Source of the DNA: Candidatus Heimdallarchaeota archaeon
GTDB lineage: Archaea > Asgardarchaeota > Heimdallarchaeia > Heimdallarchaeales > Heimdallarchaeaceae
DNA length: 64,000 nucleotides
Direction of reading: 5' to 3'
NCBI GenBank assembly: GCA_018238545.1
Contig: JABCTC010000007.1
Coordinates: forward strand, 32,087 to 96,086
Position numbers and translations under genes: made by a program. Below, piece by piece: positions 7,746 through 22,314 of this stretch. The first letter of the stretch is position 1. The number at the start of each line of letters is the position of its first letter. Under the pieces are notes generated by a model. The model saw nothing but the letters and a program-made list of their open reading frames with translations. It was not told where the DNA came from and ran no database searches.

Positions 7746-7829
7746 TTTTAATTAAGAGAAAAACTCTCTTTTTTTTCCACTGAAGCATATGTTTTTTATA
7801 TTGAAATATAGAACTCATAATTGACTAGG

Positions 7830-9341
7830 ATGGCTTCTCAAACCAACATTCATGCAATACCTTGGGTAGAAAAGTATCGACCAGGTGTTTTTGAAGATTT
7901 TATTGGAAATTCAGACCTAGTTCAAGAACTTGAGAACTGGTTACTAACTTGGAATTCTCAAAAAAAGAAAGTTGTTCTGATTGCAGGTCCTGCTGGTGTA
8001 GGTAAAACTAGTGTTGTATACTATTTGATCAAAAAGTACAATTATGAGTCTGTAGAAGTAAATGCGAGCGACAAAAGAAACAAGGCTGCTGTAGAACGAC
8101 TAGTAGGTCTATCTTCAACAGAAGGGACCGTACTTCAAGGTGCTAGGGTCAGAAAAATAATTTTAGTTGATGAAGCTGATGGGCTTTTTGGAAACAACGA
8201 TCGTGGGGGCGGACCAGCACTAGCAAGAGCTATAGATAAAGCTAAAATTCCAATAATTTGCACAGCTAATGATCCTTCAGCAAAATCTCTGAAAGCTGCA
8301 AAAAGAAAAATGAAAGTTATAACATTTAAAAGTTTAACAGAGCAAGAAATATTGCTACTCTTACAAAGGATTGTAGAAGAAGAGAAACTTGACATAGATG
8401 AAAAAGTATTAGTTGCCATCACAAAAAACTCCGGTGGAGATGCGCGATCAGCTATTAATGATTTACAAGGTGTTGCTTTTAGCGCAAAGGATCTAGAGGT
8501 GATTTTTTCACCAAGAAATCAGAAACACAGTTTAGATACAGCCTTAACAAACATCTTCTCTGCTAAAGATTATGGAGAAGCAAAACGTGCTCTTGATGGA
8601 GTTGATGTAGATTATAGAGAGCTATTAACCTATGTCTATGAACATGCTTGGCAACAAGCCGCAACTTCAATTGAACTTTTTAACATTTATGAGTTAATTG
8701 CTGAAGCCGATATGTACTTATCACAGTGCTATATTAAACAGAACTGGACTTTCTTGAAGTATTTCTTTATACTGATCTCTTCCATTAATCTTGTAAAACA
8801 ATCACCTTTCAAATATACAAAATTTAGTTTTCCAAGTTATTGGGCTTTAATGGGAAGATTGAGGGGAAAGACTGCAAAAATGAAACAATTAGCAGAGAAG
8901 AGTGGAAAAGCACTTCATTGCTCTACTAGAATATTCACTAAAGATATTTATCCCTATCTGAGAATTATTTTTAGTACAGACGCTACTATGGCCACAGGGA
9001 TTGCTGTTTGGTTACAATATAATGAAGACGATGTTGACTTCCTGACTAATGGCTCTTCAAAAATGACAAAACAAATTATGACATATTATGAGGAAGCATA
9101 CATACAGATTACTGAATCTAGATTAGAAAAAGCGAAAGAAATTAAAATTGATTTGATGTTTTTTGCTAACATGAATAAATCAAAAAAGAAAACATCTTCA
9201 AAGATCGTTCAAGAAGACGTTCAAGAAGACGTTCAAGAAGACGTTCAAGAAGACGTTCAAGAAGACGTTCAAGAAGACGTTCAAGAAGACACTAAAAAGA
9301 AATCTTCACAGATTTCTCTAGATGCCTTTTTAGAAAAATAG
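7830..9341 (+). CDS. rfcL: Replication factor C large subunit
   Basis: PWVEKYRP, GPAGVGKT, EVNASD, LVDEAD, GDARSAINDLQ, C-terminal PIP box QISLDAFL. Confidence 0.95.
   Translation: MASQTNIHAIPWVEKYRPGVFEDFIGNSDLVQELENWLLTWNSQKKKVVLIAGPAGVGKTSVVYYLIKKYNYESVEVNASDKRNKAAVERLVGLSSTEGTVLQGARVRKIILVDEADGLFGNNDRGGGPALARAIDKAKIPIICTANDPSAKSLKAAKRKMKVITFKSLTEQEILLLLQRIVEEEKLDIDEKVLVAITKNSGGDARSAINDLQGVAFSAKDLEVIFSPRNQKHSLDTALTNIFSAKDYGEAKRALDGVDVDYRELLTYVYEHAWQQAATSIELFNIYELIAEADMYLSQCYIKQNWTFLKYFFILISSINLVKQSPFKYTKFSFPSYWALMGRLRGKTAKMKQLAEKSGKALHCSTRIFTKDIYPYLRIIFSTDATMATGIAVWLQYNEDDVDFLTNGSSKMTKQIMTYYEEAYIQITESRLEKAKEIKIDLMFFANMNKSKKKTSSKIVQEDVQEDVQEDVQEDVQEDVQEDVQEDTKKKSSQISLDAFLEK
9207..9290 (+). 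repeat. Perfect 12-bp tandem repeat (gttcaagaagac x7) encoding (VQED)7 in the RFC-L linker
   Basis: Seven identical units, no spacers, in frame just before the PIP box. Confidence 0.97.
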
Positions 9342-10404: not shown

Positions 10405-12648
10405 ATGTCCTTTATAGAAAGATTAGAATTAACGCAGGAAGAAAAACAAATTTATCAACTTCTCCTGGGATGTGGGCAGTTAACCTCTTTTGAAACTGCT
10501 CAATTTAGTAACTTGCATTTATCGAAGGTAAATGTTGCTCTAGATGCTTTAATAAACAAAGGTGCTATCGGAGTTTCTGAAGGGTATATTAACAAATATT
10601 ATGTTAAAATCCCATTAGAATATTTAGCTGAAACCAGTGAGAGACTGAGTTCTGATATTAAAACAAACCTTAACGAAACAACTAATTTCATACAAAGTAA
10701 GAAAGAAAGTTTCAATCTGTTAAGAGAAAATCTTACTAGACAGTTGGTAGAAAATGCTAAACAAAAGAAAACAGCTATTGATAGCTCGCTTGCTGAAACC
10801 CATTCGTCTCTAGATGCATCAAGTCAAAAACAAAAACAGACGGTAGCAGAAAAATCTACTGCTTTAATTTCCAGATACAATATGTTAGGAGAAGAAAAGA
10901 AAGCAGTTCTCAATGCAGCAATTAAGGGATACTTAGATGAAAATGTGAACAACTTAAATCAAGCTAAAACTACATTGAATACTGTAGTAGGAAACATAAA
11001 ACAGCAAACTGAAGAATCGGTATCCGTTTCAAATAATGAGATATCTCAGCTTTCACAGAACTCTATAAATACAATCCAATCAGTTTCCGAGACTTTACAA
11101 CCAAAGCTAAACGAATTACATCAAAAATACTTATCTGAAGTTAACGAATTGATGCAGCTAATAGAACAAGGAATTGACGTTTCTAAATTGGATGTTAGAG
11201 CTTTCAATAGAGCACAATCAGAAAAATATCTTGGATATTCTTCTGAAATAACAAGAAATGCTGAAAAGAACATTGATTCTGTTTCTGAAACTGTTTCAAC
11301 AAATCTTCAAAATTTGAGAGAATCACTAGACTTGATACTTAACCGAAAAGTAGAGGAACTTTCATTAAATGTTCGAGAAGCTGTTAACTCACTCAATGAG
11401 AAAATTGAAAACATAAAAATTACTCTTGCAAATGAACTACAACAACAGAAGGACACAACTATTTCTGCAACAGTTTCACAGATTAAGGAGAGTATGACTC
11501 TAAAATATACTGATCTCCAAAACAATGAACAAAATCAGAGAAACAATCTAGTGAGTGAGCGAGATATATTTATGCAAAAATTGGAAAGTCATTTTAACGA
11601 GACAATTCAAAGTTATAACGAAAAACTCAGTGAAGTTAAAGTAGGTGCAACTGAAAGATTCACTTCATTTAACGAAGAATTTAGTGATAAGTTCAATGAA
11701 ATCTCGAATAGTGTTGTTGAGAACTTAAATAGCAACATTCAATCATTTCATACGCTCTCTGAGCAACTTAACACAGTTTTTTCAGATTCATATGTTGCTG
11801 GTTCTAACCAATTAAAAGAAAAATGGTCGGATTTAGTAGGCAAAGCTGAAATATTGATTCAAGAAAGTGAAACAACTATTACACAGCACTTTCAAGAAGT
11901 TTCAAATCTAGTTCAAACAACTACTTCTTCCTTTAAGGAAGAGTTAAACAGCTTTTTACAGCAATCACTAGACTCAGCTGTAAAGGAAATTGGACAAATA
12001 GCAAATACATCCAAAGCAAATATAGACGAAGGTAAACAATTGCTTGCAGGCAGTCTTAATTCAGAACTAGATGATTCAGTTAAATTTATCGACGATAATA
12101 ACCGTAAGATGTCGGATACAGCAAATTACCTTCTGAGCATGACAATGAAATTGAAAAACGATTTCAGAACTCTTGAAGCTACTTCAAAAGAAACAACCAT
12201 TCCTCCTGTCCAAACAACGTCTATTGTTGGTCTAGAAGCTGTAAAAGAGAATATTGCTAGAATAGTTAAAGACACAAAACGAGGAGTTACAATATTATCT
12301 CCACACAAAGAATACATCCCCTTAGATGTAATTCAATTGCTACCAACAACAGCTAAGGTTACTGTAGTAACAAATCTGGATGAACACACAGATGGTGATT
12401 GGATTTCTTCAGCAGTAGAATCTCAAGCTAATGTGGAAATAAGAAAGTTAAGAGATTCTGGTACAGGTGTTGAACTACCAAGATTCATCGGTGTTGAAAG
12501 AGAAAATGAAGAAGTTCTTATTGCAGCACAAGATGAAGCTACTGGAGAAGTTGTGGGGATCTTAAGTAAGTCTACTTACTTTGCAAAGCTAGTTTCTTAC
12601 ATAGTTATTGCTGACTTTGCAAGAGGAAGATCATCTCAAATAAAATAA
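10405..12648 (+). CDS. TrmB-type HTH protein with very long helical insert and C-terminal TrmB/PLD-like domain
   Basis: N-terminal LTQEEKQIYQLLL...ALDALINKG wHTH; ~530 aa Q/N/S/E-rich amphipathic helix; C-terminal alpha/beta domain (GLEAVKENIARIV...VTILSP...ERENEEVLIA). Confidence 0.7.
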   Translation: MSFIERLELTQEEKQIYQLLLGCGQLTSFETAQFSNLHLSKVNVALDALINKGAIGVSEGYINKYYVKIPLEYLAETSERLSSDIKTNLNETTNFIQSKKESFNLLRENLTRQLVENAKQKKTAIDSSLAETHSSLDASSQKQKQTVAEKSTALISRYNMLGEEKKAVLNAAIKGYLDENVNNLNQAKTTLNTVVGNIKQQTEESVSVSNNEISQLSQNSINTIQSVSETLQPKLNELHQKYLSEVNELMQLIEQGIDVSKLDVRAFNRAQSEKYLGYSSEITRNAEKNIDSVSETVSTNLQNLRESLDLILNRKVEELSLNVREAVNSLNEKIENIKITLANELQQQKDTTISATVSQIKESMTLKYTDLQNNEQNQRNNLVSERDIFMQKLESHFNETIQSYNEKLSEVKVGATERFTSFNEEFSDKFNEISNSVVENLNSNIQSFHTLSEQLNTVFSDSYVAGSNQLKEKWSDLVGKAEILIQESETTITQHFQEVSNLVQTTTSSFKEELNSFLQQSLDSAVKEIGQIANTSKANIDEGKQLLAGSLNSELDDSVKFIDDNNRKMSDTANYLLSMTMKLKNDFRTLEATSKETTIPPVQTTSIVGLEAVKENIARIVKDTKRGVTILSPHKEYIPLDVIQLLPTTAKVTVVTNLDEHTDGDWISSAVESQANVEIRKLRDSGTGVELPRFIGVERENEEVLIAAQDEATGEVVGILSKSTYFAKLVSYIVIADFARGRSSQIK

Positions 12649-12790: not shown

Positions 12791-12964
12791 ATGCCAACCG
12801 TAGTAGACGCTGATTGTTGTATAGCTTGTGGTGCTTGTGTAGATATATGTCCCGAAAATGTTTATGATTTAAAGGATGTTGCAGTTACTACAAGAAAAGA
12901 GGATTGTACAGATTGTGGATTGTGTATAGACGAATGTCCAAGTGAATGTATAGACTTTGAGTAA
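12791..12964 (+). CDS. 2[4Fe-4S] ferredoxin (57 aa)
   Basis: Not in track. MPTVVDADCCIACGACVDICPENVYDLKDVAVTTRKEDCTDCGLCIDECPSECIDFE; two CxxCxxCxxxCP motifs; aaggtg SD upstream. Confidence 0.95.
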   Translation: MPTVVDADCCIACGACVDICPENVYDLKDVAVTTRKEDCTDCGLCIDECPSECIDFE

Positions 12965-13076
12965 TCCTTTCTACTAGTTTCTATCTTTTTTTGTTCTTTC
13001 AATTTCCTTTTTTACGATGTTTTTATCATTTTTTACCTACATATTTATTTATTGTATTCTAATTATTTTATTAAGT

Positions 13077-16058
13077 ATGGAATCTCTTACTTGTGTTTAT
13101 TTGAAGACTTTGTCCCAAACGGGAGGAGATAATCCCCGAGTTACTATCTTAGTAGACTCTGAGAATAAGAATTTCATCATTAATCTTTGGTCTCCTTGGC
13201 ATGTTATAGGGGAATACATTCAACCATATACTTTACTTAAATTGTTCAATATTGAAAAAATACAAGATAAGGATTCTGTCTATTTCTCAGCAGGATCAAG
13301 TTCTATAGTTGTTGTGAATCCAGATGTGTTGATTAATGCATCAGCTGTAAACAATGTTTCTTTTTGCCCAAGGAGTTATTATCTTAATGAAATAGTCGGT
13401 GAAACAGCATCACCCTATATAGCAATTCGAGGATCAATCATTCACGATAGTTTTGGCTCTGCAATAGCGAGCGGTACTAAGCCTTCAGAACAACTATCTT
13501 CTGTTATAGATTCTTTTTCCTTACAGTTCGAAAAATTCGGTTACACTAAAGATGGCGTCAACAAGGAATTGAGAGAAATGGCGGAGAGTCTGGATTCTTT
13601 TGTCGAAAGATTGAAGGGTGATTCTATTCCTGAAATATTGTTTCTATCACCCACTTTTGGTATTCGAGGGAGAATAGATCTCTTCAATTCAGGGCATATT
13701 TATGAACTTAAAACTGGGAAAGTTCATGCAGATGACAATATTAGATTTTCTGATTTACTTCAAGTTACACTCTACAAATATGGTCTTGATGATTATTTAG
13801 ATTTGTCAAAACCTGATGATGGTACTGTGATATATGTTGGAACCAACAAAGCTATTCTTAAGAAGGCACAACCTTCTTGGAACCTTCTTAGATATGCGAT
13901 AGAACAGCGAAACATAGCCTACCGAATTTCTTACTTGGGATATAATCCTCCAATTCTGCCTGAAGATAAAATGAATAAATGCAAAAAATGTTCTGTAAAA
14001 CACTTTTGTGCCATGGTTTGTGCAGGTTTAAACCAAGAAAGAAGATGCACAACCTGTCCACATGACTTGCTATGCACACACAATGCTATGCCTGACACAT
14101 ACCAAGAATACTTTAATCGTTTCACAAATTGGATACGTGAAGAAAGGAATGAATCTTCTCAGAATTTTGCAAGTTTGTGGAAGTTAGATATAAAACAGAG
14201 AGTTGCAAAAGGAAAAACAATAGATGGTTTGAAACTTGAAAGTGAGATAAAAGAAAATGGGAACACCAAATTGATTTTTTCATGTAATAATATGTCTGAA
14301 CTGAGAGAAGGAGATATTATCGTTTTAAGTGAGGGAATACTCAAAGGTAGTGTAATTACGGGGGCTGTTTCAAGAATTTCTAAAAATTCACTTGAAATAT
14401 CAACTCGGGCTGTTGCTGGAACTATTTCCGTTGTAGACATCTATTCATTAGATGTAGGATTTAGGAGACAGCAAAGGGGGTTATTCAATTTAGTCTTCAA
14501 GAGAAACAATTTCAGACAGACTATTCTTGATACAACATCTCCAATTATAAAATCAGTTAAGGGTGAGTTTATCAAAAACAACCCCGTACAAAATGAAGGC
14601 ATTGAGAGAATATTAGGGACGAAAAATTTCTCCTTAATTCAAGGACCAGCAGGAACAGGAAAAACATATGTCATTGCAAAGTCTGCTATAATACTAGCAA
14701 AAAAAGGTGAAAAAGTTCTTCTTACTGCTTTCACTAATCGGGCAGTTGATAATATATGCTCTTACCTAATAGCAAATCATTTTACCAATTTTATACGGTT
14801 AGGACGAAAATATTCCACGCAGGATGAAATTAAAGAGTATACTCTTGAAACATATAGAGAAAATAAACCAGATAAATCATATTCTCAATTATTAAATGAG
14901 GTTCCTATTATTGTCGCAACTACATCCACAATATCAAGCCCAAATTTTGAGAAATTAGGAATACAAACAATCATAATTGATGAAGCAAGTCAGATGACAG
15001 AACCAACTGTACTATCGGCTCTAATGGAAGGAGATAGGTTTATTCTTGTAGGGGATCATAAGCAATTGCCCCCAGTTGTACAAAGCAAAAAAGCTCAGGA
15101 CGAGGGGTTAAGTGTTTCATTATTCGAGAGATTGGCTAAAGTTTACCCAGAGTCTATTCATCTATTAACTCATCAGTTTCGTATGAATGAGAAGCTTGTA
15201 GATTTTTCCAATGAAAAATTCTATGAAGGAAAACTGAAATCATTTGATAACTTGGTAAAATTACAAAACCTTCTTGACTTAAGCAATTTTACAGGAGATT
15301 ACTCTCAATTAGACTCTCCAGAAATTTATGACCCAAAAACGCCATTAGTTTATGTTCCTGTAAGAGGAACGTTTTATCATGATAAGAAAATTAACAAAAA
15401 AGAAGCTGAATCAGTTGGGTTGATCGTGAAAAATTTCTTGAAACTTGGTTTGAATATCAATCAAATGGGAATAATTGGTCCTTATAGAGGACAAGTTGGA
15501 GAAATGAGAAGATATCTTCCACCTAATCTCACAACTGATACAGTTGATCGGTTTCAAGGAAGTGATAGGGAACTAATTGTTCTATCCTTAACCGAATCTC
15601 AGTCGAGTGGGAGTAGGGGATTTGGAGATGAACGAAGATTAAACGTAGCCATAACAAGAGCAAAGAAGAAGCTTATTGTTGTAGGGGATCCACAAATCAA
15701 CAAAGGAATTTTGAGTGATTATATAGCTTATCTGAAAACTAATGCCTCTGTTGCTGTTACTGAAAAACAAGATAGAAGCGAATCACCAAAAATTGATGAA
15801 GAAAGCATTGTGGTTGCTGACAATCTTTCCAAAACAGCACGTTTCTTCAAAAAGATCCAGAGCAAAGGAAAACAGCTTATTGAAAGTCAAGAAGCTAAGT
15901 ACAAATGCATGATCTGTTTTCAACAAGTTTACGAAAATGGTTTGGAATGTCCCTTTTGCAAGCATATTTTTCATTATGACCACCTTGTATTATGGATAAG
16001 TGAAAAAGGTAGATGCCCATATTGTAAAACAAAACTAAGTATATTCAAAACTATTTAA
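13077..16058 (+). CDS. Dna2-like Fe-S nuclease/SF1B helicase with C-terminal RING finger
   Basis: FCPR...GRIDL...YELKTG...CKKCSVKHFC (Dna2/Cas4-type nuclease); GPAGTGKT, DEASQ, LVGDHKQLPP, SLFERL, TVDRFQG, RRLNVAITRAK; terminal CMIC...CPFC..FHYDH...W...CPYC. Start placed at MESLT. Confidence 0.88.
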   Translation: MESLTCVYLKTLSQTGGDNPRVTILVDSENKNFIINLWSPWHVIGEYIQPYTLLKLFNIEKIQDKDSVYFSAGSSSIVVVNPDVLINASAVNNVSFCPRSYYLNEIVGETASPYIAIRGSIIHDSFGSAIASGTKPSEQLSSVIDSFSLQFEKFGYTKDGVNKELREMAESLDSFVERLKGDSIPEILFLSPTFGIRGRIDLFNSGHIYELKTGKVHADDNIRFSDLLQVTLYKYGLDDYLDLSKPDDGTVIYVGTNKAILKKAQPSWNLLRYAIEQRNIAYRISYLGYNPPILPEDKMNKCKKCSVKHFCAMVCAGLNQERRCTTCPHDLLCTHNAMPDTYQEYFNRFTNWIREERNESSQNFASLWKLDIKQRVAKGKTIDGLKLESEIKENGNTKLIFSCNNMSELREGDIIVLSEGILKGSVITGAVSRISKNSLEISTRAVAGTISVVDIYSLDVGFRRQQRGLFNLVFKRNNFRQTILDTTSPIIKSVKGEFIKNNPVQNEGIERILGTKNFSLIQGPAGTGKTYVIAKSAIILAKKGEKVLLTAFTNRAVDNICSYLIANHFTNFIRLGRKYSTQDEIKEYTLETYRENKPDKSYSQLLNEVPIIVATTSTISSPNFEKLGIQTIIIDEASQMTEPTVLSALMEGDRFILVGDHKQLPPVVQSKKAQDEGLSVSLFERLAKVYPESIHLLTHQFRMNEKLVDFSNEKFYEGKLKSFDNLVKLQNLLDLSNFTGDYSQLDSPEIYDPKTPLVYVPVRGTFYHDKKINKKEAESVGLIVKNFLKLGLNINQMGIIGPYRGQVGEMRRYLPPNLTTDTVDRFQGSDRELIVLSLTESQSSGSRGFGDERRLNVAITRAKKKLIVVGDPQINKGILSDYIAYLKTNASVAVTEKQDRSESPKIDEESIVVADNLSKTARFFKKIQSKGKQLIESQEAKYKCMICFQQVYENGLECPFCKHIFHYDHLVLWISEKGRCPYCKTKLSIFKTI

Positions 16059-20798: not shown

Positions 20799-20880
20799 TT
20801 AGGTTTACGTTAAAAAAAATGATTCAACTAAAATCATTTAAATGTGTTAACTTTTGATTTTTTAACGCTTGAGGATTAAA

Positions 20881-22314
20881 ATGAATGCAGATAAGATATT
20901 GAACTTAGTCAGCGCTGGTATAGATGTTGGAACAACTACTTCACATTTGATTTTTTCTAAACTCAAACTTGAAAAAATATATACTCCAAGAGGAGTAAAA
21001 TTTGAGGTTACTAAGAGAGAGATACTATACAGAGGCAACATTTTACTCACTCCTTTAATAGATGGACAAACTATTGATTATCTCAAACTTGTTGAATTTA
21101 TCAAATCTGAATATGAACTTGCAAATATGTCAATTGATGATATTGATACTGGAGCAGTCATAATTACAGGGGAAAGTGCTAAGAAAGAAAATGCAGAAGA
21201 CCTAGTGAAGGCTCTTGCATACAAAGCAGGTAAATTTGTTTGTGCAGCTGCAGGCCCCAATTTTGAATCAGTAATAGCCGCAATGGGCTCTGGTGCATCT
21301 CAATATTCTAAAGACACAAAGAAAACTGTGATGAACATAGATATTGGTGGTGGTACAAGTAATATCGCTATCGTAAAAGATGGTGAAATCATTGATGCTG
21401 CTTGTGTCAATGTTGGTGGAAGATTACTAGCTTTTGATAAAGAAGACAAAATTGTAAGAATTGAAGACCCTATTAGAAATTTGGAAGGCAAAATAGGAAT
21501 TAAATTCGATTATGGAGCCCATATAACAATTGATCAGAAAAGGAAATTGGCTAGAATTCTAGCTGAAAGTCTCTTTGAAACATTGGATAGGAATTTACAA
21601 ACACAAATCGCTAAAAATCTACTTATGACAAATCCATTGGAATATGATGGAACTATTGATGAATTCATGTTTTCTGGTGGTGTAGCTGAGTATATTTACG
21701 AGCAAACTGATGAATATTTTGGCGATTTGGGTAAATATTTGGGTGAAGAAGTTATAGACATTATCAAGGAAAAGAATATCAGCATCCACAAACCAACAGA
21801 ACTAATTCGCGCAACTGTAATTGGTGCCGGTCAATATACTCTTCAAGTATCAGGTGTTACTACTCATATCTCAGATATCGACATTTTGCCAATTCATAAC
21901 ATCCCCGTTCTTGAACCCAAGATTGACAACAAACAGATAACTGAGGAAAGTGTGAAATTAGCCATTCAAAAGAGTCTTAATATGTTTGATGTAAAGGAAG
22001 GGGAAGAGACGGTTGCATTATCCTTCAAGGGTGCTATTGGTGGTTCATATGCGGGACTTACTACTTTTGCTAAGGGCGTAGTAAGTGCATTACCAAATAC
22101 AATTAGAAAAGAAAAACCTGTTATCTTAGTTTTTAACAATGACATAGGAAATTCTGTTGGAAACGTAATGAAAAGAGAAACATCTGCAAAAAAGAACATT
22201 ATTTCTATTGATGAAATAATTATCCAAGAAGGAGATTTTATTGATATTGATAAACCAAAAGCAGGCGGACAAGTAGTTCCAGTAGTAGTGAAATCCTTAG
22301 TTTTTTCAGCTTAG
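20881..22314 (+). CDS. eutA: Ethanolamine ammonia-lyase reactivating factor EutA
   Basis: SAGIDVGTTTSHLIFS, TGAVIITGE, FVCAAAGPNFESVIA, NIDIGGGTSN, FSGGVA, IRATVIGAG, VVPVVVKSLVF. Confidence 0.9.
   Translation: MNADKILNLVSAGIDVGTTTSHLIFSKLKLEKIYTPRGVKFEVTKREILYRGNILLTPLIDGQTIDYLKLVEFIKSEYELANMSIDDIDTGAVIITGESAKKENAEDLVKALAYKAGKFVCAAAGPNFESVIAAMGSGASQYSKDTKKTVMNIDIGGGTSNIAIVKDGEIIDAACVNVGGRLLAFDKEDKIVRIEDPIRNLEGKIGIKFDYGAHITIDQKRKLARILAESLFETLDRNLQTQIAKNLLMTNPLEYDGTIDEFMFSGGVAEYIYEQTDEYFGDLGKYLGEEVIDIIKEKNISIHKPTELIRATVIGAGQYTLQVSGVTTHISDIDILPIHNIPVLEPKIDNKQITEESVKLAIQKSLNMFDVKEGEETVALSFKGAIGGSYAGLTTFAKGVVSALPNTIRKEKPVILVFNNDIGNSVGNVMKRETSAKKNIISIDEIIIQEGDFIDIDKPKAGGQVVPVVVKSLVFSA

Follow-up and report, generated by a model that had tools for sequence, protein, structure and literature searches.

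The gene and its nuclease–helicase core

The window analysed here is a 64,000-nucleotide stretch of Candidatus Heimdallarchaeota archaeon (assembly GCA_018238545.1, contig JABCTC010000007.1, positions 32,087 to 96,086 of the forward strand), and the subject of this study is one of its genes, Dna2-RING, predicted to encode a Dna2-type nuclease–helicase that ends in a RING finger. Translation of the window gives a coding region at 13077-16055 (993 amino acids, aa), with the stop codon ending at 16058. An in-frame upstream ATG at 13017 was rejected as the start because the closest homologues begin at the Met of 13077. The nearest named database proteins come from Candidatus Heimdallarchaeaceae (92% identity) and Heimdallarchaeum aukensis (56%), which places the host among the Heimdallarchaeia of the Asgard archaea. 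The gene and its parts are as follows, with confidence in the AlphaFold2 model given as the predicted local distance difference test score (pLDDT).

13077-16058, forward strand: Dna2-RING gene, 993 aa, a single frame without an internal stop.
13077-13316, forward strand: N-terminal all-β (OB-type) domain, aa 1-80, with strands only from residue 2 in the model and a whole-length superposition on Dna2.
13317-14111, forward strand: PD-(D/E)xK nuclease with iron–sulphur (Fe–S) staple (C97, H123, D201, E210, K212, Q229, C302, C305, C311).
14019-14075, forward strand: second cysteine set, C315-x8-C324-x2-C327-x5-C333, recognised by conservation within the family.
14112-14546, forward strand: helical stalk and β-barrel connecting nuclease to helicase, from model secondary structure and the Foldseek alignment to Dna2.
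14559-15746, forward strand: superfamily 1B (SF1B, Upf1-like) helicase, with Walker A at 14643, Walker B at 14979 and motif VI at 15633.
15747-15896, forward strand: variable linker, aa 891-940, partly disordered, of low identity and low pLDDT.
15906-16028, forward strand: RING finger, C4-H-H-C2, with ligands C944, C947, C958, C961, H966, H969, C980 and C983.
Within the RING: E2-face and linchpin positions I946, W973 and P981, and K984.

Pfam matched the protein to Dna2 (PF08696) at 56.1 bits against a cut-off of 22.4 and to PDDEXK_1 at 49.2, and the helicase to AAA_11 (E 1e-38) and AAA_12 (E 1e-41), both past their cut-offs. Among proteins of solved structure, the closest in sequence is mouse Dna2 (phmmer, E 2e-58). 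The AlphaFold2 model (mean pLDDT 88, predicted template-modelling score 0.89) had as its top Foldseek matches the mouse Dna2 structures 5eax, 5ean and 5eaw (E 1e-55, template-modelling score 0.72, about 1035 columns). H123, D201, E210, K212 and Q229 correspond by motif to H164, D278, E299, K301 and Q314, the catalytic set of mouse Dna2 (PMC4716839), and are essentially invariant across 121 homologues; the same holds for C97, C302, C305 and C311, the 1+3 staple predicted to carry an Fe–S cluster. FCPR lies at aa 96-99, CKKC..HFC at aa 302-311, Walker A at aa 523, DEASQ at aa 635 and motif VI at aa 853, and all SF1B motifs are intact. The gene is single-copy, with no other Upf1-like helicase or paralogue found in the genome. 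As judged from sequence and model, the protein is a complete Dna2 nuclease–helicase, and its structural and motif identity with mouse Dna2 suggests that it would act as a single-stranded DNA endonuclease and a 5′–3′ translocase. An earlier reading of the sequence (the original prediction) had described a Dna2-like nuclease–helicase with an OB-like N-terminus; the Pfam matches, catalytic and Fe–S residues, helicase motifs and superposition bear this out, an all-β OB-type domain occupies aa 1-80 of the model, and the FCPR, CKKC..HFC and SF1B motifs all lie at the positions it had given.

Two other identities were set aside. The IGHMBP2-family helicase model (TIGR00376) scored 307 bits against a curated cut-off of 348.9, and the protein also has the Dna2 nuclease; CRISPR Cas4 matches at the fold level only. 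The model opens with OB strands at residue 2 and has no counterpart of the N-terminal α1 helix that recruits RPA in mouse Dna2; that helix may have been added in eukaryotes and not belong to the Dna2 family as a whole. A pattern search found no PIP-box (PCNA-interaction motif) in the protein. Promoter and terminator scans, with models of bacterial type, stayed at chance level.

Directly after the Fe–S staple lie four further cysteines, C315, C324, C327 and C333, which the original prediction had not mentioned. They are present in 32 of 32 Heimdallarchaeaceae-like proteins, in families f2 and f3, and in some Sericytochromatia bacterial Dna2 (P0123, P0161), and are absent from Hodarchaeales-like and haloarchaeal Dna2 among the homologues compared. 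Model pLDDT is only 57-74 across this set, which is probably an extra metal site holding either zinc or an Fe–S cluster.

The RING tail, its conservation and its distribution

The isolated tail matched Pfam zf-RING_2 at 30.5 bits (cut-off 27.3, E 4e-7); in the scan of the full-length protein the same family scored 23.9 bits, below that cut-off. Its eight zinc ligands are invariant in 59 homologous tails (mean identity 36%), 56 of which match zf-RING_2, and a tail profile finds RING-H2 ubiquitin ligases (E3s) first: Arkadia (E 3.5e-11), AMFR, synoviolin and RNF165. In the tail model, folded without zinc, core pLDDT is 84-90, and the best structural matches are RING/U-box domains, with a modest Z of 6.7 and a root-mean-square deviation of 2.6 over 60 aligned residues; Foldseek with this small domain alone gave no match at E<=0.001. 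The central helix spans residues 967-977 in the model, and its Trp is present in at least 90% of the 59 tails.

Because the ligands run C, C, C, C, H, H, C, C, the tail is neither a canonical RING-H2 nor a PHD or RING-CH finger. Canonical RING-H2 (C3H2C3) has His as ligand 4 and Cys as ligand 6, and ligand 6 is His throughout this family; only 19 of 34 close homologues have a His at the canonical fourth position (H963), and Hodarchaeales-like copies have Q there. PHD and RING-CH (C4HC3) likewise require Cys where H969 stands, weak PHD matches appear in only 3 of the 59 tails, and W973 lies seven residues before C980, as against two residues before ligand 7 for the PHD Trp. The profile and structural evidence thus indicates a RING-fold finger of variant type, which refines to C4-H-H-C2 the C-terminal finger that the original prediction had placed, exactly, at 15906-16025 (C944-C983).

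Relatives carry the fusion too: in about 45 genomes, assembled independently and belonging to four Heimdallarchaeia families, Dna2 and RING share a single frame. Three of these genomes are single-contig (G053, G054 and G063). Dna2 was detected in 29 of 29 other genomes of the window's family, and the fusion is found in nearly all of those with an unbroken contig, in family f2, in most family f3 genomes and in half of the Hodarchaeales-like ones (11 of 22). Among members of the family the RING averages 62.6% identity and the nuclease 62.0% (57-68% for the domains overall), compared to 33% for the linker, whose pLDDT falls below 50 at aa 899-905 and 930-936. In one family f3 genome (G033, C90:10062-12977) a lone TAG divides the gene into 753 and 238 aa, either by sequencing error or as a real split. 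This genome speaks for reading the fusion as an assembly or frame artefact, or its tail as a neutral remnant. We give that explanation practically no credence; it is already refuted by the open frame in the independently assembled genomes, single-contig ones among them, by 80 database proteins carrying the fusion, and by a crude ratio of nonsynonymous to synonymous substitution of 0.07-0.12 for the RING versus 0.21-0.26 for the linker. The RING is under purifying selection, and the fusion is real.

Elsewhere, all haloarchaeal, bacterial and eukaryotic Dna2 sampled lack the RING, as do longer Dna2-like proteins of other Asgard families and two proteins of a Bathyarchaeota-labelled group. The assertion in the original prediction that eukaryotic Dna2 has no RING therefore holds for those sampled. 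A Dna2 domain is detectable in 58 of 399 Asgard genomes, and most genomes outside the RING carriers have none. The RING-less Dna2-like proteins of other Asgard families (L068-L077, about 1100-1220 aa) form a clade of their own; in those of family f7, pattern matching recognises neither Fe–S nor nuclease motifs, and their nuclease may be dead.

Eukaryotic Dna2, represented by 63 eukaryote-clade sequences, forms one clade with support 100. Constraining eukaryotes to group with the RING clade was not rejected (approximately unbiased test, p 0.69) and gave a log-likelihood 9.5 higher. When Asgard sampling was enlarged and a helicase-only outgroup added, eukaryotes joined haloarchaeal and bacterial Dna2 (SH-like approximate likelihood-ratio support 95, quick search). 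Monophyly of the RING carriers is weak, with support of 70 in one tree and a split in the larger-Asgard tree. The trees settle neither the ancestry of eukaryotic Dna2 nor the ancestral status of the RING clade, and they do not justify a claim that eukaryotes lost the RING. According to Feng et al. 2025 (PMC12680538), eukaryotic Dna2 seems to be related to certain Asgard homologues; their text makes no mention of a RING. Neither Dna2 nor RING occurs in the main text of Liu et al. (bioRxiv 2020.10.19.343400), a 2026 structural-clustering preprint mentions no Dna2, and no title or abstract in the open-access literature searched describes the fusion. Dna2 and RING are each of known kinds; their combination appears undescribed, in keeping with the original prediction, which had not recognised the architecture as known.

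Ubiquitin genes and the possible role of the RING

The original prediction had proposed that one polypeptide couples DNA processing to ubiquitin signalling. The genome (G000) does encode a ubiquitin ending in GG-Y, E1s, two E2s with the catalytic Cys and JAB proteases, and an E2-family match was found in 40 of 40 relatives. One locus (L040, G000 C21:29000-36000) carries ubiquitin, E1, a UEV-Vps23-Vps28 fusion and ESCRT-II-like genes, and is of the known Asgard type that links ubiquitin with the endosomal sorting (ESCRT) machinery. Two RING-type proteins share a second cluster (L039, G000 C114:21000-33000) with an E1, a ubiquitin-like protein, a JAB and a catalytic E2; the other E2 with the catalytic Cys is encoded outside both clusters, at C71:43169. 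The GG-Y ubiquitin and the E1 of L040 are at C21:30277 and C21:30651, and the E1 and E2 of L039 at C114:22386 and C114:27666. In L039 the ubiquitin-like protein ends in TAG instead of GG, one RING is degenerate and lies in a membrane protein, and a gelsolin-like open reading frame (ORF) was noted by eye.

The same RING type was matched in 294 of 399 Asgard genomes, where it mostly forms the end of a membrane or scaffold protein; there are 12 in this genome, where 8-15 is usual for the genus, and about 11 proteins other than Dna2-RING end in it. Because it occurs on many unrelated Heimdall proteins, we regard the tail as a common module of the lineage rather than a one-off invention, and its acquisition by Dna2 is therefore less surprising, since such RINGs are common in Asgard archaea. 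Its retention under selection still implies a function. Further RING-ending proteins, with the same or a related RING, lie in G000 at C7:25550-27622, C41:25041, C62:65918, C109:64527, C48:73989, C100:26180, C101:28065 and C119:82313; several are membrane-anchored, and several have a zinc ribbon just before the RING.

To what extent the tail resembles a working E3 can be judged from the RING E3 of Caldiarchaeum, the one archaeal RING E3 with biochemical proof, which requires I30, W58 and R69 (PMC5654768). I946, W973 and K984 are their likely counterparts, with P981 alongside. Heimdallarchaeaceae-like copies retain the hydrophobic residue, the Trp, the Pro and the K/R in 32 of 32 cases each, and family f3 copies retain them in 13, 11, 13 and 13 of 13. 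A complex model of the RING with the C71 E2 scored 0.38 versus 0.00 for the best control, with one of three runs at 0.00, agreement between runs in at least 0% of contacts and a partner pLDDT of at least 62. In calibration the docking mark was reached by 58 of 80 solved pairs and 2 of 110 mismatched pairs, scores of 0.60 or lower among pairs reaching it belonged to only 7 solved pairs and to both mismatches, and RING–E2, as a textbook pair, may pass by likeness. The complex model thus lends weak support to E2 docking by the RING.

These data make it somewhat probable, in our judgement, that the protein is a housekeeping Dna2 to which an E3 module has been joined. The single Dna2 of the cell would thread onto single-stranded 5′ flaps or ends, the Fe–S PD-(D/E)xK nuclease would cut the flap or end, and the helicase would translocate 5′–3′ with ATP. 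The RING, on its flexible linker, would dock a ubiquitin-loaded E2 and promote ubiquitin transfer. The likeliest targets would be Dna2 itself, which would limit the active time of a hazardous nuclease, or RPA or PCNA on the same DNA. One chain would then combine a control that eukaryotes apply through separate enzymes; eukaryotic Dna2 is controlled in trans, by TRAF6 ubiquitylation and SUMO-dependent turnover (PMC6943134). A more specific form, in which the ligase is active, stimulated by DNA and marks itself or RPA/PCNA at flaps and breaks, and may be a precursor of the RING-less eukaryotic Dna2, we put forward only tentatively.

Several observations weigh against an attached E3 module. Hodarchaeales-like copies keep the eight ligands and the Trp, but the Pro is found in 0 of 32 and the linchpin is Q in 30 of 32; the family f2 RING is without the Trp; the ligand pattern differs from canonical RING-H2; no cluster of ubiquitin genes lies close to the gene; no Dna2 was detected in 11 of 22 Hodarchaeales-like genomes; and Dna2 functions without a RING in haloarchaea and eukaryotes. 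The decay of the E3 residues in Hodarchaeales-like copies, which keep the RING fold with linchpin and Pro gone, favours a non-catalytic interaction RING, serving dimerisation, RING–RING pairing with a Heimdall RING protein or recruitment of a partner, for which the roughly 11 other RING proteins of the genome are candidates. There are precedents: the C-terminal RING of the Slx1 nuclease serves homodimerisation and Slx4 binding (PMC4407285), HOPS RINGs make subunit contacts (PMC11513930), and GATOR2 subunits too have non-catalytic RINGs. The tail profile weakly matches the GATOR2 subunits WDR24 and WDR59 (E ~1e-3), and 22 of 59 tails match zf-RING_16; active E3 RINGs, however, outscore the GATOR2 RINGs by about eight orders of magnitude, and the surface residues retained in two families are those of the E2 face and linchpin. 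We regard a purely interacting RING as the main rival, possible but less likely than an E3. Three outcomes that would have refuted the original prediction, a non-RING fold, a fusion missing from relatives and a genome devoid of E2 or ubiquitin, did not occur. Of the coupling first proposed, then, the components, their conservation and the cascade are in place; the link itself we infer, and the Hodarchaeales-like copies speak against it.

The genes around Dna2-RING bear on a further explanation, a sensor of foreign DNA or a defence enzyme whose ligase is turned on once the SF1B helicase binds nucleic acid. The model for this is ZNFX1, an animal RNA helicase of the SF1 family in which RNA binding stimulates E3 activity (10.1101/2025.09.05.674436). 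PADLOC MkoA models do match the protein (E 4e-61), but the best stretch covers the helicase half only (aa 602-876), the gene is single-copy and was found in all 29 other family genomes, and the locus lies among housekeeping genes (RFC large subunit, ferredoxin, phosphoribosyltransferase) with no defence partner. We therefore rejected this identity and hold it to be quite improbable.

Neighbouring genes also include a TrmB helix-turn-helix (HTH) coiled-coil protein and a solute-binding protein. The closest upstream feature is the following.

12791-12964, forward strand: 2[4Fe-4S] ferredoxin gene (Pfam Fer4), upstream of Dna2-RING.

The ferredoxin precedes Dna2 in many family f1 loci, sometimes with one gene between, and was not seen within about 1.5 kb of Dna2 in f2, f3 and f5 loci. 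An operon link that would make it part of the system was rejected, as it is a neighbour only within f1; the ferredoxin is probably not part of the Dna2-RING system. The RFC large subunit (7821-9341) contains a QEDV repeat of low complexity and, near its C-terminus, a PIP-box-like motif, and also adjoins Dna2 in the family's two single-contig genomes (L064, L065). The TrmB-type HTH protein (10405-12648, 747 aa) also has a long coiled coil and ends in a globular domain; it is upstream of the ferredoxin in many family members and has only weak ZorA/apolipoprotein-like coiled-coil matches. Farther along, a 481-aa ORF at 20869-22314 may resemble the ethanolamine-utilisation protein EutA.

An archaeal E1/E2/RING cascade has been reconstituted and tried on a foreign Rad50, with no physiological substrate known (PMC5654768), and the Asgard ubiquitin papers we found are mostly about ESCRT and membranes. 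Attached to an enzyme central to DNA processing, the RING points to a pathway and to a probable substrate, and ubiquitin, E1, two E2s, JAB and Dna2-RING are all encoded in one genome. If the ligase is active, it would be the first case in a prokaryote of ubiquitin being tied directly to genome maintenance, in the class of archaea that stands nearest to eukaryotes, and ubiquitin control of DNA metabolism would predate the origin of eukaryotes. If the RING is non-catalytic, non-catalytic RINGs would already have been in use. The families that keep the linchpin and those that lack it offer a natural, built-in contrast. In summary, the fusion suggests that these archaea, close relatives of eukaryotes, link the processing of DNA to ubiquitin tagging.

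Comparison with known systems

Mouse DNA2 (5EAN/5EAW/5EAX; PMC4716839) has the same order of OB domain, Fe–S nuclease, stalk and barrel, and SF1B helicase, with the same catalytic residues and fold. In contrast to it, the Heimdall protein has no α1 RPA helix and carries the extra four-cysteine set, the linker and the RING; linker and RING occur in none of the 63 eukaryote-clade Dna2 sampled. Haloarchaeal Dna2 shares about 30-32% core identity and the same nuclease and helicase motifs, but ends right after the helicase, with no RING and no second cysteine set. In Haloferax volcanii, deletion of Dna2 is viable and increases G-quadruplex staining (PMC12873603).

Like the Heimdall RING, the small RING finger protein (srfp) of Caldiarchaeum subterraneum (PMC5654768) is an archaeal RING; it acts together with ubiquitin, E1 and E2, and shifted third and fourth ligands and an extra Cys have been reported for it as well. 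It differs in being a stand-alone RING-H2 protein encoded in a ubiquitin operon, whereas the Heimdall RING forms part of an enzyme, is encoded away from such operons and uses His as its sixth ligand. ZNFX1 unites a Upf1-like helicase and a ubiquitin ligase in one chain, as proposed for Dna2-RING; it senses RNA in animal immunity, however, its RING-like module is of another type and it has no Dna2 nuclease, and its origin would be independent. Slx1 (PMC4407285), similar to Dna2-RING, is a DNA-processing nuclease with a RING at its end, but its nuclease has the unrelated GIY-YIG fold, there is no helicase, and the RING packs on the nuclease and binds partners.

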